In this document: in pieces, positions 4,375 through 21,926 of the stretch | How the letters are laid out: each line of letters opens with the position of its first letter | Numbering within the stretch: position 1 is the stretch's first letter | Source: a virus | Taxonomy: Duplodnaviria; Caudoviricetes | Reading direction: 5' to 3' (one strand) | IMG/VR virus record: IMGVR_UViG_3300037807_000296 | Location: 1,295 to 65,294 of that record | DNA length: 64,000 nt | Notes under the pieces: generated by a model | The model's input: only the letters and a program-made list of their open reading frames with translations | Databases searched by the model: none | What the model was told of the DNA's origin: nothing | Position numbers and translations under genes: made by a program

Positions 4375-4375
4375 T

Positions 4376-4759: not shown

Positions 4760-4815
4760 CATTTTCTAGAATCATAAATAACTTGATATTAATGATTTAC
4801 AGAGAATATTGGATT

Positions 4816-5291: not shown

Positions 5292-5708
5292 ATGACTAGT
5301 AATACAACCAAAGGAATAATTATGAGTACAAGTGAAGATATTTTTAAACAATTTGATGGCGAAAGTTTTGAATTTGGGATTGACTTCGTCGATAGCGTCA
5401 GCAAAGAACAAGAAGTTGATGACATTAAACAAGTAGTATCAGACAGCAATAGTAACCTAGAACATAAATTAGATGGACTAACATCTCACTTAGATCAATT
5501 AGCAGCTAAGATAGACTTTAGCGAATCTAAAGAATTAGTAGAAGCTAATGCGCAGCGCAAGGTGGTTGACATTGTGCAATTGATAGTACCTTTGCTTCGT
5601 AACCTACAAAAATCTCCAGAATCAGATACCATTTATTGGCCTGGTTCTAAGAGGGTGCCGATGATCGATTCTCAGTTAAATAAGATGAAAGTGATATTAG
5701 ATAGTTAA
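5292..5708 (+). CDS. Conserved hypothetical coiled-coil protein
   Basis: 138-aa ORF (start may be 5322, after AAGGA); PLLRNL..SPE..IYWP motif. Confidence 0.65.
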   Translation: MTSNTTKGIIMSTSEDIFKQFDGESFEFGIDFVDSVSKEQEVDDIKQVVSDSNSNLEHKLDGLTSHLDQLAAKIDFSESKELVEANAQRKVVDIVQLIVPLLRNLQKSPESDTIYWPGSKRVPMIDSQLNKMKVILDS

Positions 5709-7003
5709 CTGTCTAGATAGAACCCTAGATCTTTCCACGTCAAACCAACAATATCATCCTCTGTTCCTAAATATTGAAGGTAGTTGTTACGAAGATAAGA
5801 TAATTTGGTTATCACTTGGTTGAAATTTGTCCGTGCTAATCTTATGATCACAGATGGTGATAAGTGTGGTAATTGATCAGCCATTAATACTCCAGTTCTG
5901 AAACACCCTAACTCAATATGACATATGTTACTATATCTAAATCCTTTAGTTTTGGTTGATTTTTTATGAGCTCTCTCAAATGAATTTAAACCAGTATCAT
6001 CCACATCGTTTAATTTTGTGCTAAGCATTTTAATACCAGCTCTCTTAAACGAATTTAAACCATTTTCATCTATATCATCTAATCTAGTGTTGAGGGTTTT
6101 GATACCAACTCTCTGAAACGTATTCAAACCATTTACATCTACATCATTTAATTTAGTCTCATTTCCTTTTCTTGTGTTTCGGATACAAGCATTCAAACCA
6201 TTTTCGTCTATATCATTCAATTTAGTATTAAGCATTTTAACACCAACTCTCTGAAACGTATTCAAACCATTTTCGTCTATATCATTTAGTTTCGTATTAG
6301 ATGCTTTAATACCAACCCTCTGAAATGTATTCAAACCATCTTCGTCTATGTTGTTTAGTTTAGACTCAATCATCCGTTTAGTTGATGGTATTTTAACATT
6401 ATCAATCCAATCAGGATCGTTGTAATGTGATTTAATTTTATCTACAGCTGCTACCCACACTGTAGATTTCCAATCAGGGTTATTGTGATACTTGCTGTTA
6501 CTCTTACCTATCTGGATGCATGCTGGTTTCCACACATCATTAACCCAATTTACATCTTCATGGTGTTTGGATATCTTCAAGCTAGTTCTGTTAAATTCAT
6601 TTAACCCATTATCATCAATATTATTTCTTTTAGTTTCGAGTCCCTTATTAATACTTTCTACTGAATTCATAAACGAGTTAGCATACGATAGATTATAGAA
6701 TAAAGGATTTGAAGCTGCCTCATATTCTCTTTGTAACTTCTCCTCGTAATCTAAACAATCTTTCTTAAACGAAAATGTTTTAACGATAATGCGTTCTAAT
6801 TGAGGGGATTGATTTTTTTGAAGGATCTTGAAATGCTCAACGGTAGAAGATCCAAAGTAAGTATCCTCTTCAGGATTAATATTTTTCTCAATGAGTTCTT
6901 TACGTGTTGAGGAACCAATATAATACTTCTCTGTTCCTATAGGATTGAGATCAGTAATAAGATAAACGTAAAAGTTGGGGCCGCTATAAATAGATGTATA
7001 CAT
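5705..7003 (-). CDS. Free-standing GIY-YIG (Seg-like) endonuclease with tandem repeats, paralog 1
   Basis: YVY...YIG, Arg, Glu and FYN motifs in the first 110 aa; 23-aa and ~21-aa repeats; C-terminal domain ending WKDLGFY. Confidence 0.88.
   Translation of the reverse strand: MYTSIYSGPNFYVYLITDLNPIGTEKYYIGSSTRKELIEKNINPEEDTYFGSSTVEHFKILQKNQSPQLERIIVKTFSFKKDCLDYEEKLQREYEAASNPLFYNLSYANSFMNSVESINKGLETKRNNIDDNGLNEFNRTSLKISKHHEDVNWVNDVWKPACIQIGKSNSKYHNNPDWKSTVWVAAVDKIKSHYNDPDWIDNVKIPSTKRMIESKLNNIDEDGLNTFQRVGIKASNTKLNDIDENGLNTFQRVGVKMLNTKLNDIDENGLNACIRNTRKGNETKLNDVDVNGLNTFQRVGIKTLNTRLDDIDENGLNSFKRAGIKMLSTKLNDVDDTGLNSFERAHKKSTKTKGFRYSNICHIELGCFRTGVLMADQLPHLSPSVIIRLARTNFNQVITKLSYLRNNYLQYLGTEDDIVGLTWKDLGFYLDS
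5948..6637 (-). repeat. Coding repeat array A-B-B-B-A6 (A = 23 aa/69 bp TKLNDIDENGLNxxxRxxxK; B = ~21 aa NDPDW type)
   Basis: Visible in both translation and DNA. Confidence 0.9.
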
Positions 7004-7030
7004 GATAATACTCCAGTATTGTTGTGTTAG

Positions 7031-7063
7031 AAAGGGATTGATGCTAAGAACATTAATCCTTTT
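7031..7063 (+). terminator. Hairpin plus T-run, conserved upstream of the three GIY-YIG paralogs
   Basis: AAAGGGATTGATG-7nt-CATTAATCCTTTT. Confidence 0.6.
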
Positions 7064-7102
7064 TGTGTATCTATGATTATTTATCGTTTAAAGAATCTCT
7101 CG

Positions 7103-7131
7103 TTCACAATTATCGTTTTGTGTGGTATAAT
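7103..7131 (+). promoter_or_regulatory. Sigma70-type promoter for gene 43
   Basis: TTCACA-17-TATAAT with extended TG. Confidence 0.65.
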
Positions 7132-7137
7132 TGTGTT

Positions 7138-9642
7138 ATGATTAAAAATAAAAACACGTATGTATCTGTTGCCAAGCAAGGTAACAAAATTCTTCACCGT
7201 TTCGTTGATGAGAACGGTAATAAACACAACGAGAAGGTCACCTATAAACCTACACTCTTCACTAAATCTAAAGATGAATATAAACACAAGGATCTGCACG
7301 GAAATTCTATGCAACCCCATAAGTTTGATAATATGTGGGAAGCATCTCAATTCATTAATCAATATAAAGATGTAGATGGGATTGAAGTTGGGGGAATGGA
7401 TAATCATGTTCTAGCGTATCTGGGTGATGTGTATCGTGATAGAGATCTTCAGAGACCTGATGGTATTAGTATCCTCATCTATGATATTGAGACTGAGTTT
7501 GTAGCAGGAAATGGGTTCCCTTTTCCGGATTTGGCAGCACATAGAATCAATGCTGTATCAGTATATTCATCATTGGAAGACAAATATTGGGTATTAGGTT
7601 TAGGACCAGATACATGGGAGTCGGATGAGTGTGAGTATAGGGCGTTTGATACTGAAACCGCTCTTCTTGAGAATTTCATTGAGCTTTGGAGATCCATTGA
7701 TCCTGATATAATATCTGGATGGAATATTGACACATTTGATAATCCATACATCTACAATCGAATCACATCAATACTTGGGCAAGCGTATGCTGATAGTTTA
7801 AGTCCGTGGGGAATTGTTAAGAAGCGTATGATTAGGGATAAGTTTGGTAAGGATAAAGAGATTGTTGATTTCACGGGTATTGCATCTTTTGATTATATCC
7901 AGTTGTATCAGAAGTTTACGTTTACCGTTAGAGAGAATTACAAATTAGATACTATAGCTCATATTGAGTTAGGGGATAATAAAATCTCTTATGATGAGCA
8001 TGCAGATTTAATGCAGTTGTATGAGAATGATTATCATAAGTTTCTTGAATATAATTTGAAAGATACTCAGTTGGTTAAGAGGTTAGATGATGCTTTAGGT
8101 CTTATGGATATTGGTATCAACTTCTCGTATATGGTTAAAGTTCCGTTTGATAAAGTGTTTGGAACTGTTACTCCTATAGATGCATGGATATATAATTACT
8201 GTTTAGCTAATGATATAATCGTTCCCCGAAATAGTCCATTTCAAGGAGATGCATCATTTATGGGAGGGTATGTATCAGATCCTGTAATAGGAAGACATGA
8301 TTGGATAATCAGTTCAGATTTAACATCGTTGTACCCGAGTATCATTAGAGCGTTAAATATTAGTCCTGAAATGAAGATTGGGCATCGAGATGGTATTAGT
8401 ATAGACGCTCTTTTAAATAAAGAGATTGATCTTCGGGGTATCGATTATACTATTAGTGCGTCAGGGGTAATGTATGATAGATCTAAACAAGGTATGATTC
8501 CGCATCTCATTGAAGGGTTATTTAAAGAACGGAAATGGAATAAAGGGAAGATGTTTGAAGCACAACGAGAGGTGGAGAAGTTAAAATCTGAGGGAAAGGA
8601 TTACTCTGCTGCATCCAAACAAGTTGTCTTATATGATAATGCTCAGATGACAAGGAAGATTACGTTAAACTCTATTTTTGGTTCATTTGGATCTGTGTAC
8701 TTCAGGTACTTTGATTTAGATGCAGCTAGATCGATTACTCATACAGGGCAGTTGATTGTTAAGTGGATGAGTGTTGGAATGGAACAATTCTTTCAAGGTA
8801 TAGTACCATCTAAGAAAAAGTATTGTTATTACATTGACACTGATTCCAATTATTTTGATGTCACTCCTTTGGTTAATAAGATGCTTCCTAATGAATCACT
8901 TGATCAGAGAGTTGAAGCTCTTGCTAGATTTAGCTCCGACAAAATGGAACCTAAGCTCAATGAAGTGTATGATGAGTTGATGGATTATCTTAATGTAGCT
9001 GATAGATGTATCGCAGCTGATAGAGAGATTATTGGAACACAAGGAATTTGGGTATCAAAGAAGAGGTATGCTGTTAGAGTACATGATAATGAAGGGGTTA
9101 GATTAGACACTCCCAAGCTAAAGATTATGGGTCTCGATATCATTAAATCAAGTACTCCATCTATCCTTCGTGATAAACTTAAAGGTGCTTTAGAGATGAT
9201 GATGGATTCTGATAACAATACTCTCATCTCATATATAGATAAAATTCGAGATGATTATAAGGATTATACGATTGAGGATATTGGTATGCCTAAATCAGTG
9301 TCTTATGTTGATAAGTATATTGATCTAGATGGTGGGTTGATTAAAGGAACTCCGATTAATAGTAGAGCTGCTATCATACATAATAGATTGTTGATAGAAG
9401 GTGAAGCGTTAACAGAAATAGGAGATGGAGATAAGATGATATATGTATTTCTGAAAACTCCGAATCCGTATCATTCTAATGTAATTGCTTTTAAAGATGG
9501 CATTCCATCAAAATTTGATTCTAAATGGATTGATAGAGATGTTCAATTTGAGAAATCGTTTATCAAACCTCTTCAGTTAATGTTAAAAGCAGTAAACTGG
9601 AATCATGAGAAAAAAGCTGATTTGAGTGGTTTTTTTGGGTAA
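7138..9642 (+). CDS. 43: Family B DNA polymerase gp43
   Basis: Exo motifs YDIET, SGWNIDTFD, YNLKD; pol motifs DLTSLYPSII, KITLNSIFG, YIDTDS, KKRY; start taken as ATG 7138. Confidence 0.97.
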   Translation: MIKNKNTYVSVAKQGNKILHRFVDENGNKHNEKVTYKPTLFTKSKDEYKHKDLHGNSMQPHKFDNMWEASQFINQYKDVDGIEVGGMDNHVLAYLGDVYRDRDLQRPDGISILIYDIETEFVAGNGFPFPDLAAHRINAVSVYSSLEDKYWVLGLGPDTWESDECEYRAFDTETALLENFIELWRSIDPDIISGWNIDTFDNPYIYNRITSILGQAYADSLSPWGIVKKRMIRDKFGKDKEIVDFTGIASFDYIQLYQKFTFTVRENYKLDTIAHIELGDNKISYDEHADLMQLYENDYHKFLEYNLKDTQLVKRLDDALGLMDIGINFSYMVKVPFDKVFGTVTPIDAWIYNYCLANDIIVPRNSPFQGDASFMGGYVSDPVIGRHDWIISSDLTSLYPSIIRALNISPEMKIGHRDGISIDALLNKEIDLRGIDYTISASGVMYDRSKQGMIPHLIEGLFKERKWNKGKMFEAQREVEKLKSEGKDYSAASKQVVLYDNAQMTRKITLNSIFGSFGSVYFRYFDLDAARSITHTGQLIVKWMSVGMEQFFQGIVPSKKKYCYYIDTDSNYFDVTPLVNKMLPNESLDQRVEALARFSSDKMEPKLNEVYDELMDYLNVADRCIAADREIIGTQGIWVSKKRYAVRVHDNEGVRLDTPKLKIMGLDIIKSSTPSILRDKLKGALEMMMDSDNNTLISYIDKIRDDYKDYTIEDIGMPKSVSYVDKYIDLDGGLIKGTPINSRAAIIHNRLLIEGEALTEIGDGDKMIYVFLKTPNPYHSNVIAFKDGIPSKFDSKWIDRDVQFEKSFIKPLQLMLKAVNWNHEKKADLSGFFG

Positions 9643-9904
9643 TATAATATTGGAAACACAAAATTTAATCTTATTGGGAGCCTCTTTTATTATGGTATTA
9701 TTAAGAGGATTTCAACAACAAAATGTTATTCACTCATATTACTATTGGGCAGTGTTAACTACATGGGGATTATCTGTAGCTGAAGTTGCTATGTTGTTGT
9801 ATGTGGTTAAGATTGGATGGGAAGCAGTTCCGTATATCGGATTAGGAGGTTCATTTGGAGTTGTATCAGCAATGTATATCCATAAACGCTTCATTAGAAA
9901 ATAA
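9626..9904 (+). CDS. Small multi-pass membrane protein
   Basis: Three hydrophobic segments; exact start uncertain. Confidence 0.6.
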   Translation: MVFLGNIILETQNLILLGASFIMVLLRGFQQQNVIHSYYYWAVLTTWGLSVAEVAMLLYVVKIGWEAVPYIGLGGSFGVVSAMYIHKRFIRK

Positions 9905-9917
9905 CGTTAAATAGTTG

Positions 9918-9946
9918 TTGACTTTTATCATTTTATATAGTATAAT
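9918..9946 (+). promoter_or_regulatory. Sigma70-type promoter for the uvsX N-half
   Basis: TTGACT-17-TATAAT; SD AAGGAG before ATG 9977. Confidence 0.8.
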
Positions 9947-9976
9947 AATGATAGTATCAATGTAAGGAGATTATAA

Positions 9977-10216
9977 ATGAGTTTGTTAGATAAGTTAAAA
10001 AAAGCTAGTACGATTGAAGATGTTGAGGTTTTGAGTAATTCTGAATTTTTCACTGATAAAGATAATACAGTTACTGAATTACCTATTCTTAATATTGCGT
10101 GTTCAGGACAATTGGATAAAGGTTTCACTTCTGGATTGACTTTAGTCTGTGGGCCTTCAAAACATTTTAAATGTTGTGGACCTGATACACCTATTGTTGT
10201 TTACGTTGCTGATTAG
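9977..10216 (+). CDS. uvsX: UvsX recombinase N-terminal fragment fused to a 14-aa N-intein
   Basis: PILNIACSG...GLTLVCGPSKHFK (Walker A up to Lys), then CCGPDTPIVVYVAD-stop. Confidence 0.92.
   Translation: MSLLDKLKKASTIEDVEVLSNSEFFTDKDNTVTELPILNIACSGQLDKGFTSGLTLVCGPSKHFKCCGPDTPIVVYVAD
10172..10213 (+). mobile_element. Split intein N-fragment (IntN, 14 aa)
   Basis: Block A-like C-x-x-x-D-T-P-I starting exactly at the UvsX breakpoint. Confidence 0.85.
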
Positions 10217-10221
10217 ATTAA

Positions 10222-11106
10222 TTAATTAGCTATTTCATAATAATAAAATCCTAAACTTTTCCAAGTCTTATTTATAGGATTATTGGGGAGGTTTTGAAGG
10301 AATAAACTTCGATTGATGCTGCCTTTACTGATTACAGCATTAAAATCTTGTTTACACAATCTTCGGATAGTTCTCGCTAGTACACTGTAAGTGTGTATCT
10401 CTTTAATAGCGTTTACTAGAGCTTGAGCTGAGTGGAATTCTCCAACTCCCTTGAACCCGTAAAATTTGTAACCGTGTCTTGTCTCTACATGTTTTCGTAT
10501 CTTATCCTTCCCGATAGTCGCTTTCCATTCAGGATCAGTAATAGTTTCAATGTGTTTAGCGGTACTATCCTTTCCTGTAGTTGCTTTCCACTCAGGATCG
10601 TTTCTGGTGTTTATCATTTTAGCTGATTGTTTTTTTCCTGTAGTTGCTTTCCATTCAGGATCAGTAATAGTTTCTAATCTTTTAGCTGATTGTTTTTTTC
10701 CTGTAGTTGCTTTCCATTCAGGATCAGTAATAGTTTCAATGTGTTTAGCGTTTGAATTAAATGATGGGGCAAATCCTTTATTAGCATATCCTTTGTTGTA
10801 GAATAAAGGATTAATAGCTGCTTTGTGTTCTCGTTGTAAATTCTCCTCATAATCTAAACATTCTTTGATGTTATCAAATGTTTCAATTATTACACGTTCT
10901 AATTGAGATGATTGGGTTTTTTGAAGGATCTTAAAATGCTCAACAGAGGATGATCCGTAATAAGTATCCTCTTCAGGATTAATGTTATTTTCTTGTAATT
11001 CTTTACGATAAGAGGAACCAATATAATACTTCTCTGTTCCTATAGGATTGAGGTCAGTGATTAAGTAAACATAAAAGTTAGGGCCGCTATAAATAGATGT
11101 ATACAT
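10222..11106 (-). CDS. GIY-YIG endonuclease paralog 2, lying between the uvsX halves
   Basis: N-terminus nearly identical to 5705..7003; four 21-aa repeats; ends WKSLGFY. Confidence 0.88.
   Translation of the reverse strand: MYTSIYSGPNFYVYLITDLNPIGTEKYYIGSSYRKELQENNINPEEDTYYGSSSVEHFKILQKTQSSQLERVIIETFDNIKECLDYEENLQREHKAAINPLFYNKGYANKGFAPSFNSNAKHIETITDPEWKATTGKKQSAKRLETITDPEWKATTGKKQSAKMINTRNDPEWKATTGKDSTAKHIETITDPEWKATIGKDKIRKHVETRHGYKFYGFKGVGEFHSAQALVNAIKEIHTYSVLARTIRRLCKQDFNAVISKGSINRSLFLQNLPNNPINKTWKSLGFYYYEIAN
10498..10749 (-). repeat. Four 63-bp/21-aa repeats AKxxETITDPEWKATTGKxxx
   Basis: Visible directly. Confidence 0.92.
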
Positions 11107-11133
11107 TGCAATACGTCCTTATTGTTGTGTTAG

Positions 11134-11166
11134 AAAGGGATTAATGTTCGAATCATTAATCCTTTT
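11134..11166 (+). terminator. Conserved hairpin plus T-run
   Basis: AAAGGGATTAATG-TTCGAAT-CATTAATCCTTTT. Confidence 0.65.
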
Positions 11167-11180
11167 TATTTATCTTTATG

Positions 11181-11209
11181 TTGACATTTATCGTTTAATG
11201 TTGTATAAT
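11181..11209 (+). promoter_or_regulatory. Consensus sigma70 promoter for the uvsX C-half
   Basis: TTGACA-17-TATAAT; SD GGAG before ATG 11244. Confidence 0.85.
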
Positions 11210-11243
11210 TATATTAATGTTAATGATATTATGGAGAAAGTGA

Positions 11244-11627
11244 ATGAAGCGGTTAAAATTAACGTATAAAGAGTTGTATGAGTTGATTGAAAAAGATCAG
11301 ATGATAGAATATCATGTTAAGGATCATAACGGAGAATTTACAAAGGTTATAGGTATCAATAAGAAACAATCTGATACATATGATATCGATATCTCAGATG
11401 GTGCTATTAAGATGACTGTTGGTGATCGGCATGCTTTTATGAATTCAATCGGTAATGCTGTTGTTACAGAAGATTTAGTCCCAGGTGATCAATTAAAATC
11501 ATTACATGGAAATTTACTAGTCACATCTGTTGACAATTTCAAGAAAGATCAAGAAGTGTATGATATAGCTATATCAGATCCACATTGGTATACTAATGAT
11601 GATAGTCATGGATTAATTCATCATAAT
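11244..11627 (+). mobile_element. Split intein C-fragment (IntC, 128 aa)
   Basis: Ends GLIHHN|S(+1). Confidence 0.88.
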
Positions 11628-12458
11628 AGTTTAGTTTCTTTACAATTCGTTTCTGCTTATATGGGTAAGCATAAAGATGCTGTATGTTTATTTTACGATT
11701 CAGAATTCGGTATGCCTGAGAATTACTTCACATCTAATGATGTAGATGTTGATAGAGTTATACATCTTCCAGTCAAGAATATTGAGGAGTTGAAGTTTGA
11801 TATCATGCAACAGTTAGAAGCTATCAGCAAAGATGATAAGGTTATAATCTTTATTGATAGTATCGGTAATCTATCCAGTAAGAAGGAAATGGATGATGCT
11901 ATTGATGGAAAATCAGTTGCTGATATGTCAAGAGCTAAGATGTTGAAATCGTTATTCCGTATGGTTACTCCTTATCTAACAATGAAGGATATTCCTATGA
12001 TTGCTGTTAATCATGTATATAATGAGATTGGTTTATATCCTAAAGCTATCGTTGGAGGAGGGCAGGGTGTGTACCTCTCAGCTGACACAATCTTCATCAT
12101 GGGAAGACGTCAGAATAAGAAGGGTACTGAGGTTAAGGGTTATGATTTTATCATGAACATTGAGAAAAGTCGATATGTTAGGGAGAAGTCTAAGTTACCT
12201 ATAACAGTATCATGGGAAGGTGGTATTGATAAGTATTCAGGATTGCTTGAGATTGCTAGACAGTTGGAGTATGTTACCTCACCTAAGAATGGATGGTATA
12301 CTAGACCCATGATTGAGGGTGATAAGAACTGGAGAGCGGGAGATTCATCGTGTGCTGAGTTTTGGGATCCATTATTGTTGAGTGATGAATTTAAAACAGC
12401 TATTACACGTTCTTATGAAGTGGGTAGCTCTCCTATGGAAGGTGATATGGATGAGTGA
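11244..12458 (+). CDS. uvsX: 128-aa C-intein fused to the UvsX C-terminal part
   Basis: Intein block B (TVGDRH), block F (VYDI), terminal HN then S; extein carries CLFYDSEFG, IFIDSIGNL, VGGGQG, IEKSR. Confidence 0.93.
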   Translation: MKRLKLTYKELYELIEKDQMIEYHVKDHNGEFTKVIGINKKQSDTYDIDISDGAIKMTVGDRHAFMNSIGNAVVTEDLVPGDQLKSLHGNLLVTSVDNFKKDQEVYDIAISDPHWYTNDDSHGLIHHNSLVSLQFVSAYMGKHKDAVCLFYDSEFGMPENYFTSNDVDVDRVIHLPVKNIEELKFDIMQQLEAISKDDKVIIFIDSIGNLSSKKEMDDAIDGKSVADMSRAKMLKSLFRMVTPYLTMKDIPMIAVNHVYNEIGLYPKAIVGGGQGVYLSADTIFIMGRRQNKKGTEVKGYDFIMNIEKSRYVREKSKLPITVSWEGGIDKYSGLLEIARQLEYVTSPKNGWYTRPMIEGDKNWRAGDSSCAEFWDPLLLSDEFKTAITRSYEVGSSPMEGDMDE

Positions 12459-12735
12459 GCTTGATGTAGATCTTAAAAGATATAAGTTGTGTGTAGATCA
12501 ACATGGAGTTGATAGATATTCTGATATGAAGGGTATCTTCACCCAAGATGCTATTGTATTTATAAATGAGAATGATCTAGTTGATGTTAGTCTTGATGAT
12601 GTTATAGATCACCATGGTATTATATTTTATGCACATGCTTTATCTAGGGATGACCCATCTATATACGGTACATATTATAATAAAGGAGAGCCAATGTTAA
12701 TGTTAAAGTCAATGATGGAGATAGCAGATGAATAA
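12451..12735 (+). CDS. Hypothetical protein
   Basis: ORF overlapping the uvsX stop; start moved to ATG 12451. Confidence 0.55.
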   Translation: MSELDVDLKRYKLCVDQHGVDRYSDMKGIFTQDAIVFINENDLVDVSLDDVIDHHGIIFYAHALSRDDPSIYGTYYNKGEPMLMLKSMMEIADE

Positions 12736-12952
12736 TGATCAAGTTAATTTAGTTACAGAATCTGGATATCATATACAATTTAATCCTGATTCTGTTGAGA
12801 TTTCGGAAGATGGAGAGGTGGTACTTGATATTGTAGTGTATAAAAATGACGTTCCTGTTAATGATTATGATAAAGATGAAGTTGATGGAGCTATATCAAG
12901 ATTTATAACAGATGTATTTAAACAAGCAATGGAGATTGATGAACATGAGTAA
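12728..12952 (+). CDS. Hypothetical acidic protein (in the position of gp40)
   Basis: Lies between uvsX and 41; identity inferred from synteny only. Confidence 0.5.
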   Translation: MNNDQVNLVTESGYHIQFNPDSVEISEDGEVVLDIVVYKNDVPVNDYDKDEVDGAISRFITDVFKQAMEIDEHE

Positions 12953-13259
12953 AATTGTAGTAATGAAGTTGTTGTCAGGGGATGATATTGTAGCAAATGT
13001 TGTAGATGCAGGTACTAATGAATCTGTTATTGAAATACGGGATGTGATAGCTCTACACCAAGTACCTATGGAACAAGGGGGTATTGGTGTAGCTGTTCAT
13101 CCATTCTTACCTTATGTTACTGAAGGACATGTTTTTTCTATCGCTCTATCTCATGTTATTGTTATGGCTCCTCCATCAGAAGATATTCTGAAACAATATA
13201 ATAATGTATATAAAGAGAAAGAGAAAGAGTTAATCAATCGTAAAGAATACAAACATTAA
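12945..13259 (+). CDS. Sm-like fold protein of T4-like phages
   Basis: KLLSGDDIVA and PFLPY motifs. Confidence 0.55.
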   Translation: MSKIVVMKLLSGDDIVANVVDAGTNESVIEIRDVIALHQVPMEQGGIGVAVHPFLPYVTEGHVFSIALSHVIVMAPPSEDILKQYNNVYKEKEKELINRKEYKH

Positions 13260-13280
13260 AGTATAGGGTATACTGTATAT

Positions 13281-14639: not shown

Positions 14640-14692
14640 TCTGTTGTTGATGTGGTTATATAAAGATAGGATTACCAGAAACGGAGATTGGA

Positions 14693-15244
14693 ATGACACA
14701 AAAAGAGTTTGAGCAGGATTGTTATGAAAAAGCGCAAAAATATATACAAGGTGGATTGGTACACGCTGGTACTGATTTATTAAACCTCACTGAAGTGTTT
14801 ATATCTATGGGTCAAGAGCATTTGGATAGAATGTTATTATCTGACTCTAAAATAGATTATAATGATGAGATAGTTGCTATTGAAGAGGTGGGAGTTAAGG
14901 ATACTGTGGATATTTCAGTTACTGGAGATCATCTTTTCTATTGTAATGGCATATTAACGAAAAATTCATTTGGACTTGCTGCCACTCTCGATTTCCTCAT
15001 TTCATTAACGACTAATGATGAGTTATCTGAGATGGGTCAAATTAAATTCAAAACTATTAAAAATAGGTATACTGAGGATAAAAAATCATTTATGGTGAAT
15101 GTTGATTTCCCTCGAATGACATTCTCTGATGTTGATGATATATCTACTAACTATTCAGTATCACCCCAAACTCAAGATTTGATGTCTAATAAACCTACAT
15201 TTAACTCTAGAGTTAGTAAATTTGATAGTATCGTTGTTAATTGA
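14693..15244 (+). CDS. 41: C-intein fused to the gp41 C-terminal part
   Basis: DEIVAIEEVG..TVDISVTGDHLFYCNGILTKN|SFGLAATLDF...IKNRY. Confidence 0.92.
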   Translation: MTQKEFEQDCYEKAQKYIQGGLVHAGTDLLNLTEVFISMGQEHLDRMLLSDSKIDYNDEIVAIEEVGVKDTVDISVTGDHLFYCNGILTKNSFGLAATLDFLISLTTNDELSEMGQIKFKTIKNRYTEDKKSFMVNVDFPRMTFSDVDDISTNYSVSPQTQDLMSNKPTFNSRVSKFDSIVVN

Positions 15245-15260
15245 ACTGATAAATAATGAG

Positions 15261-15476
15261 ATGAATGAAGAACATAAAAATAGATTGATATCTAAAACGA
15301 TATCAGATGATATCCGGACATTAGAGAGATTCGTTAAATTATACTCAAGAAAATCATCAATAATCCGTAAATTATCATCTGGTAATAACGTTGATTATGG
15401 ACAAGATTCTGATGTGATTTTACATGGAATTTCTTTGATATCTCAAACACTAACTAAATTAAAGAGTGTAACATGA
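15261..15476 (+). CDS. Hypothetical protein
   Basis: ORF after GATAAATA at 15248; start uncertain. Confidence 0.5.
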   Translation: MNEEHKNRLISKTISDDIRTLERFVKLYSRKSSIIRKLSSGNNVDYGQDSDVILHGISLISQTLTKLKSVT

Positions 15477-16891
15477 AAAGTTTCTTAGATCATTTGGATG
15501 AGGTTAAATTCAGCTCTAAACGTATTAACTCAGTGTTAACTTTACTAGCATCTCTAGCTAGTAAAAAAGTTGGAAGTGAGTTTAAGAGACTTGAGGGATC
15601 CATCTTCCTTGATGTGCAATTTAAGAAAGCTGATGGTATAAAAGGATCTGGTGCCTTATATATGAATGAAAAAGGTCAGATGCTTCGTATAGGAGTTAGC
15701 AAAGGTAAGGGTTTCGAGAATAAGAGTAATGAGCTTAATACTTTTGATTTCTGGGAAGCGGGGATGGATTGGTCGAAGCCTTCTCGATCAGCTATAGCAT
15801 ACCCTCATTATAATATCATAGATGTAGTGAATGATGTACTTCTTTATGTTATTAAAGGTAATTATCCTATTAAAGAGAGTTTAGATGAAGCAGCGACTCA
15901 AGTTAAATCAGGGTCAAAATTATTCCTCTACGCATTATCTAAAGGGTGGGAAGCAGAGGATGCTGTAGCATTAACACAGCATAGTCTCAAATCCCGATTG
16001 AATAAATCTGGTGATTGGGATAATGATGAGTTTAGAGGATATAAGAAGATAAGCTCATCAGAAGTTAATAGCGTTAAAGTTAATATGAAAAAAGCTGATA
16101 AAATATTAGCAGATCGTAAGTATGCTGATCCCGATTTAGTATTTAATGATATTGAGGATTTAGCTAAAGTGGTTGCATCAGGTGCTCAGAATAGTATGAT
16201 TGTGGCTGGGATGGCTGGAATTGGTAAAACGTATCACATCGAAAAAACTCTAGAATCTATGTTTGGATCTCCTGACGGTCCAAACGCGAGATGGAGACAT
16301 TATAAAGGGGCTAAGTTATCAGTCTTTGGTTTATATAATGCTCTATATCAAAATAGAACTGATATGACTATAGTATTTGATGACTCTGATAGTGTGTGGA
16401 AGGATGCTGATGCAGTTAACATCCTCAAATCTGCTTTAGATACTTATGAGAAGAGAAAATTATCGTGGACTAGTAAAGCGACGTTCCCTGTTCAAAATCT
16501 AACTCCAGAAGAGAGATTGGAATATGAGATGAAGGTTGATGGAGAGTTATTGGATCCTGATTCACTTTCTGCTGTTAAACTTCCATCAGAGTTTATCTTC
16601 ACGTCTAGAGTTATATTTATTAGTAATCTCCCTCCTAATAAGATTGACTCTGCTATTCAATCAAGATCACTGTTTATTGATGTAAACTTAACAAGAGAGA
16701 GTGTAATCCTCCGAATCAAATCAATCCTTAAAGTTATTCATTTAGATGTATCAGATGAGGAGAAGTTTGCTATTGTGGATGCGTTATCAGAAAACTCTTC
16801 GACTCTAACTATGAGAGCTGTTGAGGCTGCTATGGCTATTAAAAAGGCAGGAATCAATGATTGGGAAAGACTTGTTTCACAGTACGTCTAA
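15473..16891 (+). CDS. AAA+ ATPase with capsid-targeting-like N-terminus
   Basis: GMAGIGKT, IVFDDSD, FISN, AIQSRS; begins MKSFLDHLDE. Confidence 0.82.
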   Translation: MKSFLDHLDEVKFSSKRINSVLTLLASLASKKVGSEFKRLEGSIFLDVQFKKADGIKGSGALYMNEKGQMLRIGVSKGKGFENKSNELNTFDFWEAGMDWSKPSRSAIAYPHYNIIDVVNDVLLYVIKGNYPIKESLDEAATQVKSGSKLFLYALSKGWEAEDAVALTQHSLKSRLNKSGDWDNDEFRGYKKISSSEVNSVKVNMKKADKILADRKYADPDLVFNDIEDLAKVVASGAQNSMIVAGMAGIGKTYHIEKTLESMFGSPDGPNARWRHYKGAKLSVFGLYNALYQNRTDMTIVFDDSDSVWKDADAVNILKSALDTYEKRKLSWTSKATFPVQNLTPEERLEYEMKVDGELLDPDSLSAVKLPSEFIFTSRVIFISNLPPNKIDSAIQSRSLFIDVNLTRESVILRIKSILKVIHLDVSDEEKFAIVDALSENSSTLTMRAVEAAMAIKKAGINDWERLVSQYV

Positions 16892-16989
16892 ACATCCTCG
16901 TAATAGTAAAATCCTAAATCTTGATGGGATGTTGCGATGGACGTGAACAGTATACAAACGGAAACTACAGTTATTGGAGAGTGTATCAA

Positions 16990-17943
16990 ATGAAAACATT
17001 TGAGATGTATATCAGTGAGCGGAGACGGAATCCAGATCAGAATCCTAGAATATCAGCATATGATGCTCTATTAAAGTATAAAGATGATTCTGATATGTAT
17101 ATCAGTTTTACCTCAAAACGAAAGATTGGGATTAATCCAGCGTCTGATTACAATACTCCCTTATCTATATACACTTACCCTTTAAAAGAGATTTGGAAGG
17201 GATTTGATCATAAACATAAACGAATTGTAGTACCGTTTGCAGGTCAATATAAACATATATGGGTGTTGAAGCAAACTGGGACTAAATTTATAAAAAACAT
17301 GAATCAGGATTACTTATCGAGTGATTATGATCGAGATATGATGAAGTTGAGAGATTTATATGAAAAGGAATCGATGGCCTCTGTAACTAAAGACGCTATA
17401 CTATTCTCAGCTAAAAAGATAACCCGAGCTATTATAGGTATTAACTCTAATCAAGATTCTAAGCATCTTGTATTTGGATCTATGATTGAAAATGTTTATG
17501 ATGTTATTAAGATTGGAGTTATTAGCTGGGATGAGTTTAAGTTGAAGGTAAATGCATTTCAATCCCTTGATAAAGATTATACACAAGTTGAAGTTGAGCT
17601 TAAAAAACACAATGATATGTTCATTGCTAATAGTATATCATTTATAGAGAAGCAGGGAGCACAAAACGCTCGTTTTAAATCGCCTATTGGAATATTTTGG
17701 TATGTTACTATGAAGCTTGCTGAGAAGCTTGCTACTGGAGGACAGTTTAAACCAAGAGGTGTCAAAATTGGAAATAAGACTTCAAGAAAATGGAATAGTG
17801 TATTACGATCCTTAGGTTATGCGGGTTTCGCTGATAAAGATGGAAAGGGAATTATACACTCTTCAGAACCAATGCAGGCAATATTCTTAGATAAGAAGAG
17901 TTTTAAAGTCATTGAACTGATATACAATGAGATTGATAAATAA
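16990..17943 (+). CDS. Hypothetical protein, possibly ADP-ribosyltransferase-like
   Basis: SD GGAG before ATG 16990, MKTFEMYISE; LGYAGF...EP.QAIF pattern; fold is a guess. Confidence 0.55.
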   Translation: MKTFEMYISERRRNPDQNPRISAYDALLKYKDDSDMYISFTSKRKIGINPASDYNTPLSIYTYPLKEIWKGFDHKHKRIVVPFAGQYKHIWVLKQTGTKFIKNMNQDYLSSDYDRDMMKLRDLYEKESMASVTKDAILFSAKKITRAIIGINSNQDSKHLVFGSMIENVYDVIKIGVISWDEFKLKVNAFQSLDKDYTQVEVELKKHNDMFIANSISFIEKQGAQNARFKSPIGIFWYVTMKLAEKLATGGQFKPRGVKIGNKTSRKWNSVLRSLGYAGFADKDGKGIIHSSEPMQAIFLDKKSFKVIELIYNEIDK

Positions 17944-17947
17944 TAAT

Positions 17948-19312
17948 ATGAAAACATTTACCCAATACATCTTTGAAGGAAAAGCGTCTCTAAGTAGATC
18001 GAATTTCTCGGATAATCCAATTAGATTTGAGAAGTTTAAAGAGTTGATTTCTCAAGGATTTGAATTTGAATTAGTAGATAAACATGGATCTAAGAAGGTT
18101 GTTATAGATAAAGCGGTATTATCAGTGTTATCTGATGATCCTTCGTCCATTCCTGCATCTATTGATACAACGGACGGTCCTCATACAATTGGGCACTTCT
18201 TCAAAATCCCAGAACTTGGAGGGGGCAAGGGATCAGGAGGAGGGGCAGCGTCAACTAGATTGATGGAATCACTTCAATGTTTGTACTGTTCTTTAGCGTT
18301 TAATGTAGTTAAAGGGAATATATCAACACTCCACCTCCTCTCAGATAATTTAAAATCTGCGGCAAAGTACATTGATGTGGATGAGCAGTTTGATAATCTC
18401 TTAAACGTTAATCAACAAGATTGGATTGATGGGACTATATTAGCAGCGAATAAAATATACAACTATCTAGGTAATCACAAGTATACAATGCATCGTGGAT
18501 CTAAATTCATGAAGAAGATATACCAAAATAAAACTGATTTAATGAAAAAGGAATTGGGAACAGACTTGAATCCAGATAAATGGAATCCAGGGGATGTCTG
18601 GTTCGTAACATCTGAAGGGGAGAAGCAGATTAATAGAGGAAGTGGATCTATTGATGATTATAATCTATTGATTAAACGGTTATTCCAGAGTAGAGATTTA
18701 GTCGGTATATCCTTAAAGAAGATTGGGGGATCGGTAGCTATAGATGCTTATAATATAGAAGTTGAAGTTGTTGATGATAAATTCTCTTCATTTATAACTT
18801 CATCTAAACGAAATGATTTTTTTAATTCAATTGATGTGTATCTATTCTCAGATAAAAATACTACAATTCAATTGAGAGCATTTGGTAAGATTACGGGATG
18901 GCAGGCTGAGATTAAAGAGAAGTTAGCTAGTGGGGGTAAGATGAGTTTAGGCCCGATTAACATGCTCCTAAGAAGATTGAAGCATAGAATTCTCCCTGAT
19001 AGTAAACGAGTATCAAAAGCAGCTAAGGAACCTAATAACGTGTTCTGGAAAGAGTTTCATAGACTGTATGAGAAATATTCCGATGAACAATCTATGTCAC
19101 TAGAAGATTTTATCCTTAAAGCTACTTCTGGGAAGATGTCAAATCCTCAAAAAGCACACTCCTTCCGTTATAGTAAGTTTTTAGGATTGAAGTTCATTGA
19201 TATTTTAAACGGAACATCTAAAAGATCTGATAAAGATGATATAATTAAAGGTATGATAAGGTATGCTAGATCATCAACAGATCTCTCTTCTGTTTATATT
19301 AAAGTTCATTAA
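17948..19312 (+). CDS. Putative PD-(D/E)xK-type nuclease
   Basis: KWNPGDVW...VGISLKK; begins MKTFTQYIFE. Confidence 0.6.
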   Translation: MKTFTQYIFEGKASLSRSNFSDNPIRFEKFKELISQGFEFELVDKHGSKKVVIDKAVLSVLSDDPSSIPASIDTTDGPHTIGHFFKIPELGGGKGSGGGAASTRLMESLQCLYCSLAFNVVKGNISTLHLLSDNLKSAAKYIDVDEQFDNLLNVNQQDWIDGTILAANKIYNYLGNHKYTMHRGSKFMKKIYQNKTDLMKKELGTDLNPDKWNPGDVWFVTSEGEKQINRGSGSIDDYNLLIKRLFQSRDLVGISLKKIGGSVAIDAYNIEVEVVDDKFSSFITSSKRNDFFNSIDVYLFSDKNTTIQLRAFGKITGWQAEIKEKLASGGKMSLGPINMLLRRLKHRILPDSKRVSKAAKEPNNVFWKEFHRLYEKYSDEQSMSLEDFILKATSGKMSNPQKAHSFRYSKFLGLKFIDILNGTSKRSDKDDIIKGMIRYARSSTDLSSVYIKVH

Positions 19313-19332
19313 TCAAATAAAAAGGTACACTA

Positions 19333-20532
19333 ATGTATACGTTTAAAGAATATATAGATCTGAATGAAGGGGGTAATATAACAATCCCTGATATACATGG
19401 AGTTGAGCATGATGCAGCTCGTATCCCATTAGAGGATATTGGCCGTAAAACATTTGTTGAATCTTTCCAAAAATTTTTCTTAAAGCTTAATACTATATTC
19501 GAGAAAGAGTATAATTATCCTCTATGGCCGGATACTGGGGAAATCACTAATGCTGGTATCTTTAACGGCTCCACTAGTTTCATTATGAGTGCTGATTACT
19601 CTGATGAAGAAGTGCTTAAATATAAAAAAACTGCTGGTGATATTGATGTTGCATTCCCTCGAGAATATGGTCCTGATCTATATAACTTACTTCTTAAACT
19701 TAGAGGAAAGGAGTTGGTTCCGGGATTAGAGTATATAGGGAATAACGCTAAAACTCAAGATAAATTAGGCAATACTATAATATGTATAGTGAAAGCTCGT
19801 TATGGTGATATAGAAGTATCTGCTCAAGTAGATATGGAATTATCAGAATTCGTACAAGGTAAACAAACCGATTGGAGTGCTCATATACACTCGAGTAGCT
19901 TTGAAGACGCTAAGGCAGGAATTAAAGGAGCAGCATCAAAATTCTTATGGAGAGCGTTGATTGGGATCACTTCACAAGTAACAGATAACTTCTTAGAAGC
20001 GACACCATCTAGTACACCTGATAAGATAACAATCAAAAAGAAACAGCCTGCTTACTTGAGTCTTATAGTGTATGGAGGAGAAGCAGGTGTTGGTACGAAT
20101 CCTGCATATGAGTTAATGGTTGATTCAAAGAATAAACCTATCTTAGTAAATGGGAAGAGGGTGTTCCGTAAGCTGAAGCCTAAAGAGAGGACTTATGATA
20201 GAAATCTAGGAAACCTCATTAAGATAGCATTTGGGGGCAAGATTGATTCTAAGAAGATACCTAAGAAGGAGTTAGATAGTTTTGTTAAGACATTAGCGAT
20301 AGCTAATAAGTATCTTGATAAAAAGAGTAAGGAAGATGTGAATTATAGGTTCATGTTAATATTGTTTGGAGAAGATGGAAGGACACAAACTATTGAGCCT
20401 AAAAATCCAAGAGAGGATTTAGAGATTAAGATGGCTATGTATAATAAACTAATTGAACTCTTGAAAATTAAAGCACATCCGCAATTAGAGGCTAAGGTTA
20501 ATATGTACATGAAGGTTATGCATAAGTCATAA
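19333..20532 (+). CDS. Pol-beta superfamily nucleotidyltransferase
   Basis: NGS...GDIDV and QVD motifs; begins MYTFKEYIDLNE. Confidence 0.68.
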   Translation: MYTFKEYIDLNEGGNITIPDIHGVEHDAARIPLEDIGRKTFVESFQKFFLKLNTIFEKEYNYPLWPDTGEITNAGIFNGSTSFIMSADYSDEEVLKYKKTAGDIDVAFPREYGPDLYNLLLKLRGKELVPGLEYIGNNAKTQDKLGNTIICIVKARYGDIEVSAQVDMELSEFVQGKQTDWSAHIHSSSFEDAKAGIKGAASKFLWRALIGITSQVTDNFLEATPSSTPDKITIKKKQPAYLSLIVYGGEAGVGTNPAYELMVDSKNKPILVNGKRVFRKLKPKERTYDRNLGNLIKIAFGGKIDSKKIPKKELDSFVKTLAIANKYLDKKSKEDVNYRFMLILFGEDGRTQTIEPKNPREDLEIKMAMYNKLIELLKIKAHPQLEAKVNMYMKVMHKS

Positions 20533-21837
20533 TTTAACATCTTCGTAATAATAAAACCCTAAATCGTGATATGATTTACCAGTAGGATCATCTTCTAGGG
20601 ACTGGAGAAATGGACTATTCCCTCTTCTCGTGATGATTGTTTTGAAATTACTTTTAGCTAATTCATGAATACGAGATGAGCTCAAACTACATCCGTAATG
20701 TTTTTTAATAGCAGCAGCGAGTGCTTTAGGAGTGTGAACAACCTCCACTCCTTTAAATCCGTAACACTTGTGACCACATAACGTTTTACTTCTCTTCTGT
20801 GCAGCGTCTTTTCCGGTAGTATTTTTCCATTTTACATTATTTACAGTTTTGATGTGTTTAATAGCACCTCGTTCATGAGAATTCAATCCACTATCGTCTA
20901 TATCATTTAATTTAGTGTATTTAGTTTTAATAGCACCTCGTTCATGAGAATTCAATCCACTATCGTCTATATCATTTAATTTAGTGTATTTAGTTTTAAT
21001 AACACCTCGTTCATAAGAATTCAATCCATTATCATCTATATTATTTAATTTAGTTTCACTTATTTTAAATACACTTCTTTGGTATGAATTTAATCCATCA
21101 TCATCTATATTATTTAATCGAGATGCACAAGTTTTAGCACCAGCTCTTTGATAAGAGTTCAATCCATCGTTGATATCATTTAATCTAGTTTCTTTTACTT
21201 TAAATGCACTTCTTTGATTTGTATTCAATCCGTCATCATCGATGTCATTTAATTTAGTTTCTTTTACTTTAAATGCACTTCTTTGATAAGAGTTTAATCC
21301 ATCATCATCGATATCATTTAATCTAGTTTCTTTTGCTTTAACTCCAACTCTTTGATAAGAGTTCAATCCGTTACTATCTATATCTTTTAATCTCGTTGTG
21401 TTAGATTTAAGGATAGCTCTTTCAAATACATTTAATCCATTCTCATCCACATTAGTGAGTTTTGTTTTTACTGTTTTCAGTTGCGATTCAGCAGTTGTTG
21501 AGAATCCACGATTAGCATAACATTTGTTGTAGAATAAAGGATTGGAAGCGGCATCATGATCTCTTTGTATCTTCTCCTCATAATCTAAACATCTTTTCTT
21601 AGAAGAAAATGTTTTAATAATAATGCGTTCTAATTGAGGTGATTTGGATTTTTGAAGAGCTCTAAAATGTTTAACAGAAGAAGACCCAAAATAAGTATCT
21701 AGTTCTGGATTTATGTTATTCTCTTGTAGCTCTTTACGATGTGATGACCCAATATAATACATCTCTGTTCCTATAGGATTGAGATCAGTAATAAGATAAA
21801 CGTAAAAGTTGAGGCCGTTATAAATAGATGTATGCAT
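20527..21837 (-). CDS. GIY-YIG endonuclease paralog 3 with tandem repeats
   Basis: Same N-terminal nuclease domain; nine A-type repeats plus one B-type; ends YHDLGFY. Confidence 0.88.
   Translation of the reverse strand: MHTSIYNGLNFYVYLITDLNPIGTEMYYIGSSHRKELQENNINPELDTYFGSSSVKHFRALQKSKSPQLERIIIKTFSSKKRCLDYEEKIQRDHDAASNPLFYNKCYANRGFSTTAESQLKTVKTKLTNVDENGLNVFERAILKSNTTRLKDIDSNGLNSYQRVGVKAKETRLNDIDDDGLNSYQRSAFKVKETKLNDIDDDGLNTNQRSAFKVKETRLNDINDGLNSYQRAGAKTCASRLNNIDDDGLNSYQRSVFKISETKLNNIDDNGLNSYERGVIKTKYTKLNDIDDSGLNSHERGAIKTKYTKLNDIDDSGLNSHERGAIKHIKTVNNVKWKNTTGKDAAQKRSKTLCGHKCYGFKGVEVVHTPKALAAAIKKHYGCSLSSSRIHELAKSNFKTIITRRGNSPFLQSLEDDPTGKSYHDLGFYYYEDVKL
20788..21468 (-). repeat. Coding repeat array A9-B (69-bp unit)
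   Basis: TKLNDIDDxGLNSxxRxxxK repeated. Confidence 0.9.
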
Positions 21838-21864
21838 GATAATACTCCCGTATTGTTATGTTAG

Positions 21865-21897
21865 AAAGGGAATGGTGATTGGTTCATCATTCCTTTT
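21865..21897 (+). terminator. Conserved hairpin plus T-run
   Basis: AAAGGGAATGGTGA-TTGGT-TCATCATTCCTTTT. Confidence 0.6.
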
Positions 21898-21901
21898 CGT
21901 A

Positions 21902-21921
21902 TATTTATCAGATGATAAATA
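21902..21921. promoter_or_regulatory. Back-to-back late promoters (GATAAATA on both strands)
   Basis: TATTTATC-AGAT-GATAAATA between divergent genes. Confidence 0.7.
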
Positions 21922-21926
21922 TTAAT

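Follow-up and report, generated by a model that had tools for sequence, protein, structure and literature searches.

Tandem single-helix repeats in putative GIY-YIG homing endonucleases of an uncultured marine T4-like phage

The window analyzed in this study is a stretch of 64,000 nucleotides (nt) of viral DNA, positions 1,295 to 65,294 of the IMG/VR record IMGVR_UViG_3300037807_000296. The host of the genes described here is an uncultured marine T4-like myovirus. Three paralogous genes in the window, E1, E2 and E3, encode proteins in which a GIY-YIG nuclease domain and a C-terminal domain flank arrays of two short tandem repeats, A and B, that correspond to no named domain. We read these proteins as freestanding homing endonucleases of the Seg/I-TevI type, with the repeats serving as NUMOD-like DNA-tracking or spacer modules before a C-terminal anchor, and assign this reading a probability of roughly 0.6. 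The gene anatomy, the paralogy, the selection on the repeat scaffold, the link between repeats and nucleases and the predicted secondary structure are results of this analysis; that the repeats bind DNA, that the C-terminal domain is an anchor and that the genes home are inferences.

Each gene is a self-contained cassette on the strand opposite to that of its neighbors, made up of a late-promoter-like box, a leader hairpin, a ribosome-binding site and the open reading frame (ORF). According to this reading, the protein would consist of an N-terminal GIY-YIG nuclease, a middle of tandem single-helix A and/or B units, and a compact beta-alpha-alpha-beta C-terminal domain that probably acts as a sequence-specific anchor of the NUMOD1/helix-turn-helix (HTH) kind. 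The repeats would take over the job of NUMOD3 and the linker in I-TevI. Specifically, the string of helices would lie along the DNA and add footprint mainly through backbone and shape contacts, and the array would set the reach from anchor to cut. Array length would change through duplication or unequal recombination inside an array. New targets would come mostly from coupling the nuclease cassette to a different whole binding region rather than from a code carried by each repeat.

Three paralogous genes and their repeat arrays

The three ORFs exist exactly where an earlier note on this DNA had placed them. All are on the minus strand and surrounded by plus-strand genes. Their parts are as follows (aa, amino acids):

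5705..7003, minus strand: E1, gene for a 432-aa GIY-YIG endonuclease
6668-7003, minus strand: E1 nuclease domain
6566-6634, minus strand: E1 single A unit
6365-6565, minus strand: E1 degenerate B-like, Trp-rich segment
5951-6364, minus strand: E1 six A units
5708-5950, minus strand: E1 C-terminal domain
10222..11106, minus strand: E2, gene for a 294-aa GIY-YIG endonuclease
10771-11106, minus strand: E2 nuclease domain
10486-10737, minus strand: E2 four B units
10225-10485, minus strand: E2 C-terminal domain
20527..21837, minus strand: E3, gene for a 436-aa GIY-YIG endonuclease
21502-21837, minus strand: E3 nuclease domain
20848-21465, minus strand: E3 nine A units
20782-20847, minus strand: E3 one B unit
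20530-20781, minus strand: E3 C-terminal domain

Pairwise, the N-terminal ~110 aa of the proteins are identical at 89/109, 86/109 and 86/112 positions (77-82%), and the corresponding DNA at 264-269 of 336 nt. The paralogy is clear, although the description of these domains as near-identical was too strong for such values. The C-terminal domains are likewise related, as had been noted together with their LGFY ends: over ~80 aa, E2 and E3 share 34 of 78 residues, and all three proteins finish with W.DLGFY. The E1 domain can be aligned to the other two over 42-45 aa only (20/42 and 22/45 identical). The genes occupy different, tightly packed settings: E1 lies beside regA/gp43, E2 inside uvsX, and E3 between two unknown genes. 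A fourth paralog on the minus strand starts at base 162 of the record (G000:C1:46-162), upstream of the window. In the record, this copy is a 38-aa ORF with a stop. An 18-kilobase (kb) contig of sequencing run X7 extends the homology to approximately codon 109; the record may thus be misassembled at its very start, and the fourth copy could be intact. The suggestion that a single family has spread within a genome is supported by this total of four or more copies, each at its own site in the phage. In a tblastn search of 50,697 GenBank phage records, E3 matched four records over residues 9-126 only, and the matches never reached the repeats.

Repeat A is 23 aa long; repeat B is 21 aa long, basic and Trp-containing. 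The E3 array contains nine A units, one of them of 22 aa, and one B unit (score of 15.3 with a B profile built from 91 repeats). The array of E2 contains four clear B units, which scored 32-34 with the same profile. In E1, one A unit is followed by a 67-aa Trp-rich segment and then six further A units, seven in all. The Trp-rich segment gave scores of 5.5 and 0, and its units have only a DP(D/E)W-like motif in common. The middles had been described as A-B-B-B-A6, B4 and A9-B. This description fits E2, E3 and the seven A units of E1, whereas the three B units proposed for E1 are degenerate. The shuffled, modular architecture described in the earlier note is supported. Closely related nucleases carry different arrays: A/B-like/A, B4 and A9-B in the window, and A7, A8, B5, B1 and mixtures of A and B in relatives.

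The A consensus is T-K-L-N-D-I-D-E-N-G-L-N-S-Y-Q-R-a-a-i-K-x-x-x. DNA identity among the 15 A units of 23 aa ranges from 52 to 93%. In their 105 pairwise comparisons, the codons of D7, G10, L11, N12, R16 and K20 showed 50, 62, 54, 26, 54 and 14 synonymous differences, respectively, and no non-synonymous ones; differences at positions 17-19 and 21-23 alter the amino acid in almost every case. The A scaffold is under purifying selection, and the A units are old, being neither chance similarities nor recent duplicates. The earlier description of a fixed scaffold with variable residues at set places is borne out by these purely synonymous differences. The A units resemble neighbors in their own protein (81-93% DNA identity) more than units of the other protein (52-72%). 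Such clustering by protein, with none across E1 and E3, indicates that the arrays expanded through duplication in place rather than by swapping units among paralogs.

Repeat number appears to vary. Database proteins similar to E3 have eight or seven A units (P0001, P0002) versus nine in the window, and those similar to E2 have three or one B units (P0208, P0099) versus four. In one contig of run X15 (depth 4.4), 138 base pairs (bp) of E1 are skipped, corresponding to two units; this was the only array variant in the contigs of four runs. The longest exact internal DNA repeats are 31 nt in E1, 58 nt in E2 and 60 nt in E3. The X15 skip joins on 31 shared letters. This number equals both the longest exact repeat of E1 and the word size of the contig index, and the skip may thus be an artifact of assembly. 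Contigs of the deep run X7 end at every array. Other contig joints have sides of 21-49 letters at 90% likeness and link paralogous pieces. Short-read assembly collapse may account for the shorter arrays as well as real polymorphism does. P0001, P0002, P0208 and P0099 were not counted as real alleles, since exact internal repeats could cause such collapse.

Predicted domains, carriers of the repeats and role of the arrays

All three proteins contain the GIY and YIG motifs, FYVYLI at residues 11-16 and YYIGSS at residues 27-32. Across family alignments, Y12, Y28, G30, E87, N99 and N104 are nearly invariant, and R34 is present in E1-E3. Based on the order of the residues, R34, E87 and a downstream Asn would be equivalent to R27, E75 and N90 of I-TevI. 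The Pfam families GIY-YIG and SegE_GIY-YIG matched E2 and E3 with E values of 0.002-0.007, SegE_GIY-YIG being the best or second-best Pfam match. Among the PHROG families labeled 'homing endonuclease', 7504 matched all three proteins and 314 matched E2 (E = 2.6e-13). The top fold match in the Protein Data Bank (PDB) was the I-TevI catalytic domain, 1ln0, for the models of both E2 (VIA Z 5.5, root-mean-square deviation (rmsd) 3.7, 83 residues aligned) and E3 (VIA Z 4.8, rmsd 3.3, 84 aligned). Foldseek matched I-TevI with a probability of 0.8-0.84 and an E value of ~0.2, followed by the GIY-YIG domains of UvrC. In the AlphaFold model of E3, the predicted local distance difference test score (pLDDT) of the N-terminal domain is only 41-69. 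A search of the predicted viral structures of BFVD gave 34 matches with E ≤ 1e-3. Apart from two uncharacterized proteins, those that carry a name are entries for phage GIY-YIG, Seg-like, NUMOD/NUMOD3 or intron-endonuclease proteins. We accept the N-terminal domain as a predicted GIY-YIG nuclease, though each single line of evidence is weak. The earlier assignment of the proteins to modular, homing-type GIY-YIG endonucleases is supported.

The predicted structures suggest that the arrays are extended strings of helices rather than solenoids. In the E3 model, each A unit is a 15-residue helix, running from position 13 to position 4 of the next unit, plus an 8-residue loop (D5-N12). The pLDDT is ~80 over residues 120-270 and the predicted template modeling score (pTM) is 0.26. 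In the E2 model, a B unit is a helix of ~20 residues with a one-residue break (pLDDT 78-88, pTM 0.37). Among the matches listed, the A array aligned to elongated coiled-coil-like chains only, with rmsd >7 Å throughout, and no solenoid of the TALE, PUF, TPR or other type was among the best 50 fold matches listed for the E3 model. The B region of E2 aligned weakly to many helical chains, including STPR on DNA (5d23; 64 residues aligned, rmsd 4.8, and a Z of 3.7 that is usual for any long helices).

The loop of the A unit, D5-x-D7-x-N9-G10, is almost invariant, precedes a helix and resembles DxDxDG metal loops. The loop could bind calcium or magnesium in the manner of an EF-hand or dockerin, such that the array would fold or stiffen only with divalent ions; this would be compatible with any other account of the arrays. 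We regard metal-dependent folding as very improbable: the position of the bidentate acid of the EF-hand is occupied by the invariant R16, Pfam EF-hand and dockerin models gave no match at E ≤ 1, and the enzyme acts intracellularly, where free calcium is low.

The C-terminal domain is predicted with a pLDDT of 86-93 and has the order beta-beta-alpha-alpha...beta. Together with the B unit, that of E3 weakly matched the DNA-binding end of I-HmuI (1u3e; Z 3.5, rmsd 4.2, 66 residues aligned). In the ESM Atlas, the domain scored 0.84-0.86 to clusters of NUMOD1, I-HmuI_NUMOD-like and I-TevI_DNA-bd, and the A array pointed to clusters of DUF7167 (0.82) and NUMOD3 (0.76); all of these values are below 0.9 and are leads only. 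The C-terminal domain was found in 14 fetched proteins using phmmer. In the E2/E3 subtype, a B unit always precedes it. A word-indexed search with the C-terminal domain of E2 yielded two E2 variants among eight candidates and was uninformative on the range of the domain. By eye, the domain was also recognized at locus L008, a contig of another marine phage, in an HNH endonuclease (6002-7336) whose repeats are of a third kind: roughly ten units of ~25 aa with the pattern W[YF]N...Y...SPG[DE]GW[IV]KQG. A GIY-YIG relative with eight A units (3992-5149) lies 850 nt upstream of this HNH gene, amid apparent tail and baseplate genes.

The earlier note had not recognized the repeats as a named domain, and profile searches of Pfam, NCBIfam and the PDB gave the same outcome. 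In hmmscan of E1-E3, neither repeat had a Pfam match at E ≤ 1, and NCBIfam gave only noise far under threshold. Against PDB sequences, the A array returned no rows at E ≤ 10, and the A2 family profile returned six chance-level rows (E 0.09-0.77). A literature search for tandem repeats in modular GIY-YIG enzymes returned no paper on such repeats, as judged by title and start of abstract, and DUF7487, a family found in A-repeat proteins (see below), occurred in no paper.

The repeats are nonetheless widely distributed. Whole E3 retrieved 313 cluster representatives among 1.84 billion proteins, and its A region alone retrieved 96 proteins at E ≤ 1e-3. Using a hidden Markov model (HMM) made from the 16 A units of the window, A units were detected in 168 of 210 fetched proteins, with a maximum of 11 per protein. 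Their spacing was 23 aa in 188 pairs, the runner-up being 19 aa in 36. We then scanned 121 of the 145 proteins with at least two A units against Pfam, leaving out three near-copies of window proteins and a further 21 by size. The domains detected in these 121 proteins were:

DUF7487: 36/121
SegE_GIY-YIG: 6/121
T5orf172: 2/121
MTES_1575: 2/121
NUMOD3: 2/121
zf-C2H2: 2/121
HNH, MUG113, Tn7_TnsA-like_N, DUF559 and Phage_endo_I: 1/121 each

B units occur in 22 further proteins. They follow NUMOD3 motifs in one (P0226), precede an I-TevI-like HTH tail in another (P0220), and precede C-terminal CxxC...WHGxNC fingers in three (P0211, P0216, P0226). The position of the B unit is that of NUMOD3 in I-TevI-type enzymes. 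Based on their partner domains and neighbors, both repeats are therefore nuclease-associated modules. NUMODs are known to combine freely with GIY-YIG, HNH and Vsr-like nucleases (PMC2677866, PMC3239194).

Many A-repeat proteins, typified by P0003, P0008, P0015, P0036, P0040 and P0077, have a conserved, zinc-ribbon-like N-terminal motif, CxCG...C..C, and C-terminal domains that are Vsr/DUF559-like or Mom-like. Some A-repeat proteins are from contigs of 130-305 kb, and large viruses may be the main carriers. Searches for related loci found two each for E3 and P0003; the neighbors of the P0003-like gene at locus L086 had no Pfam match.

These data bear on whether the arrays read DNA sequence. In the manner of STPR or TALE repeats, the variable positions 13, 14, 17-19 and 21-23 would each help read a few bp per helix; the order of the units would spell the target, and gain, loss or exchange of units would retarget the nuclease. 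A constant scaffold under purifying selection with variable sites at set places, arrays of up to 11 units joined to many nuclease types, and different arrays on closely related nucleases at different loci are in keeping with such a code. So are the weak alignment of the E2 B region to 5d23 and the precedent of STPR, whose 23-aa single-helix repeats run along a groove and cover 4 bp per helix (PMC4856987). The pattern of variation argues otherwise. The loop NDIDENGLN is the most conserved part of the unit, and the variation lies inside the helix. The variable sites are mostly small or hydrophobic: A/G/S/V/T at position 17, A/S/G/V/I at 18 and I/L/K/R at 19. Among 490 units, 262 triplets occur at positions 17-19 with no small recurrent set, and 123 pairs occur at positions 17/18, the commonest of which, AA, is in 40 proteins. 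On a helical wheel, the conserved S13, R16, K20, T1 and N4 would fall on one face, polar and invariant. If this face meets DNA, each unit would make the same contacts, which suggests backbone or shape reading, as in STPR; STPR itself reads shape rather than a code (PMC4856987). Moreover, units group within proteins with no exchange between E1 and E3, and the C-terminal domains differ among the paralogs and could explain different targets. A sequence-reading array is, in our assessment, quite unlikely. The specific proposal of a TALE-like code in the earlier note is not supported, given the conserved loop, the missing recurrent residue set and the one-helix, extended units predicted by AlphaFold.

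At the other extreme, the arrays may be passive and make no contact with the DNA, either spacing nuclease and anchor as a semi-rigid ruler or tether or offering a surface to protein partners. The A arrays of this phage are near-neutral, unlike the basic B array (+5 over 84 aa) and C-terminal domain (+7) of E2, and the AlphaFold model is extended with a low pTM; both points would fit a spacer. The shorter apparent alleles (9/8/7 units in E3, 4/3/1 in E2 and minus 138 bp in E1) would, if real, mean that unit number is uncritical. A spacer has no need, however, for D7, G10, N12, R16 and K20 to be invariant under selection across hundreds of proteins. In addition, the mean charge was +1.3 over 490 A units and +2.1 for B units, and B units stand at the place of NUMOD3 in other enzymes. 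A passive role is accordingly judged unlikely.

Leaders, the broken uvsX gene and probable homing

The preferred reading, homing by Seg/I-TevI-type enzymes, is further informed by the loci. The relevant features are:

7004..7090, minus strand: E1 leader, with the late-promoter-like box GATAAATAA, a conserved hairpin, CTAACACAACAATA and a ribosome-binding site
11107..11193, minus strand: E2 leader, with the conserved hairpin as in the E1 leader
21838..21924, minus strand: E3 leader, with the same hairpin, preserved by compensatory base changes
L006 163-269, outside the window: leader of the fourth copy
9977..10216, plus strand: uvsX 5' fragment, N-extein up to the P-loop GPSKHFK, then 14 aa beginning with Cys (putative short N-intein piece), then a stop
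11244..12458, plus strand: uvsX 3' fragment, a putative C-intein of ~125 aa up to HHN, then S and the RecA/UvsX core

A leader of ~90 nt is common to 4/4 copies and comprises GATAAATAA, the hairpin with compensatory changes, CTAACACAACAATA and the ribosome-binding site. We take GATAAATAA to resemble a T4 late promoter. In plus-strand orientation, a T run comes after the hairpin, and the hairpin could double as a terminator. Similar hairpins and late-promoter boxes are described upstream of endonuclease genes in fractured genes (PMC2677866).

The end of the uvsX 5' fragment and the E2 stop codon are 5 nt apart. The junctions in the window are ...GPSKHFK|CCGPDTPIVVYVAD-stop and ...GLIHHN|SLVSLQ. 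In a distant relative (L017, UvsX 57% identical), the gene is uninterrupted and reads GPSKHFK|TSFALL. The C fragment was matched by the loci of 63 relatives, with the match starting at residue 126 in most rows. Pfam intein models gave no match to the C piece at E ≤ 0.01, and its identity as an intein therefore rests on the splice junctions. The E2 locus has the arrangement of a fractured gene, in which a putative split intein of uvsX is broken unusually early and E2 lies between the halves on the opposite strand. Since E2 lies inside a split intein where the uvsX of a relative is unbroken, the likely target is an uninterrupted uvsX allele.

Contigs of runs X14 and X15 span the junction of the uvsX N fragment and E2 with zero differences. 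A search of metagenome contigs with E2 found nine loci, none near-identical, and the related-locus search found no relatives of the gene neighboring E3 (19333-20532).

The nucleases might not home at all and might instead perform another job for the phage, such as host DNA breakdown or competitor exclusion, with the repeats serving that job. The failure to find an endonuclease-free allele would fit this possibility, as would the GIY-YIG fold of T4 EndoII and of a 5-hydroxymethylcytosine (5hmC)-specific restriction enzyme (Z 3.1-5.0). We nevertheless consider it highly unlikely: E2 is placed precisely within a split intein at the P-loop of uvsX, as is classic for homing genes; copies adjoin conserved replication genes, each with its own conserved leader; and the closest family matches are homing endonucleases.

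Several observations weigh against the homing reading or parts of it. The Pfam matches are below the curated cut-offs (PF01541, 18.8 versus 22.6 for E3; PF19835, 17-18.4 versus 25 for E2 and E3), and E1 had no Pfam match at E ≤ 1 in hmmscan. The fold Z-scores, 3.5-5.5, are weak by the guidance of the search tool itself. Neither a six-frame search of the entire contig (E ≤ 10) nor hmmscan of E1-E3 (E ≤ 1) detected NUMOD3 (PF07460). Among the 121 A-repeat proteins scanned, half or more lacked any Pfam match and any recognized nuclease domain. In hhalign, the probabilities for A versus B, A versus DUF7487-type and B versus DUF7487-type repeats were 0.1-1.4%, which, with profiles of 21-23 columns, is weak evidence. 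The nine A units of E3 have a net charge of +1 over 206 aa (isoelectric point of 7.7) and the six of E1 a net charge of +2 over 138 aa. R16 and K20, although invariant, could serve simply to pair with the acidic loop. Finally, a search for alleles lacking the endonuclease came up empty at all three sites, both in close relatives and among contigs of four runs across 5500-22000.

The source record comprises 65,294 bases and is estimated to be 37% complete. The window encodes a replication set of clamp loader, RegA (PF01818, E = 7e-47), family-B DNA polymerase, UvsX and DnaB/gp41-type helicase. Among GenBank phages, the polymerase has its best matches in cyanophages, at no more than 36-37% identity. 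Of 20 marine or seawater runs listed, 18 contain half or more of the words sampled from 9900-12500; the rows name 14 studies, three rows lack a study, and 12 rows are possibly sources of this DNA. In 13 marine or seawater runs dated 2012-2020, the region recurs near word-for-word (0.96-0.98 of sampled words), and the phage is therefore widespread and very uniform.

The DnaB/gp41-type helicase (window 13281-15244) is a second candidate for a split intein. Its first ORF has, after the helicase core, ~88 aa that start with Cys. The next ORF, 53 nt on, carries the junction ...LFYCNGILTKN|S, and there is no endonuclease gene between the two. The arrangement looks similar to that of the gp41 split inteins that Dassa et al. 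reportedly described in 2009.

Significance and comparison with known systems

Homing endonucleases consist of a nuclease and small DNA-binding modules, and such modules are used in genome-editing fusions. What is added here is a pair of unnamed, strictly periodic helix repeats that viruses join to no fewer than five or six different nuclease folds, with as many as 11 units per array. The hundreds of metagenomic proteins that carry them are now unannotated, and the repeats deserve a family definition in domain databases on that account. If the arrays track DNA, they would provide a compact scaffold of 23 aa per unit with which to extend or tune nuclease footprints, and would show how one selfish gene family colonizes several sites of one phage genome. 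It is a rather improbable further step that repeat A, and perhaps B, is a new tandem DNA-reading module in which each 23-aa unit spans a set, small number of bp and the variable positions bias the sequence or groove shape that it prefers. If true, viruses could direct nucleases of many types to new sites as they lengthen, shorten and recombine arrays, and the module would be a natural, nuclease-linked and engineerable counterpart of TALE and STPR.

As in TALE proteins, the tandem repeats are of fixed length, their scaffold is conserved while certain positions vary, and the arrays are nearly uncharged. A TALE unit has 34 aa, two helices and a hypervariable pair in the loop, whereas the units described here have one helix, a loop that is their most conserved part and no discrete residue set. 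STPR of silkworm FMBP-1 (5D23) consists of 23-aa, one-helix repeats that zig-zag along the major groove at ~4 bp per helix (PMC4856987). In contrast to the viral arrays, it is a domain of four repeats from an animal transcription factor. DUF7487 contains a distinct 23-aa repeat, T.LE+YG....Q..EI..K, and proteins with this family show its units and A units in alternation; E1-E3 have no DUF7487 match.

The E2 locus resembles fractured genes, in which GIY-YIG endonucleases are found and for which one intein is split after motif N1 with a C part of 122 residues (Dassa et al. 2009, PMC2677866, available text). Similarly, E2 stands between the N-extein plus short N-intein and the long C-intein plus C-extein of uvsX. 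The locus differs in that the N piece is 14 aa and the endonuclease is on the opposite strand; uvsX is also not among the hosts named in that portion of PMC2677866.

NUMOD3 and its kin are, like the repeats, short helical modules of varying number and combination next to GIY-YIG, HNH and Vsr-like nucleases. The repeats here are distinguished by strict periodicity (23 or 21 aa), much longer arrays and, for A, an acidic DxDxNG loop. The two types also occur together: in P0226, the B units come right after NUMOD3 motifs, and 2/121 proteins combine NUMOD3 with A units. The closest parallels are I-TevI and the T4 Seg enzymes, which have the same order of N-terminal GIY-YIG domain, extended middle and compact C-terminal binding domain. 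The Seg genes are also freestanding beside conserved phage genes, with several paralogs per T4-like genome. Relative to the HTH of I-TevI, the C-terminal domain presumably has an insert of ~25 aa. I-TevI has a zinc finger and a NUMOD3 helix, where the proteins of this phage have arrays of up to nine units of two unnamed repeats.

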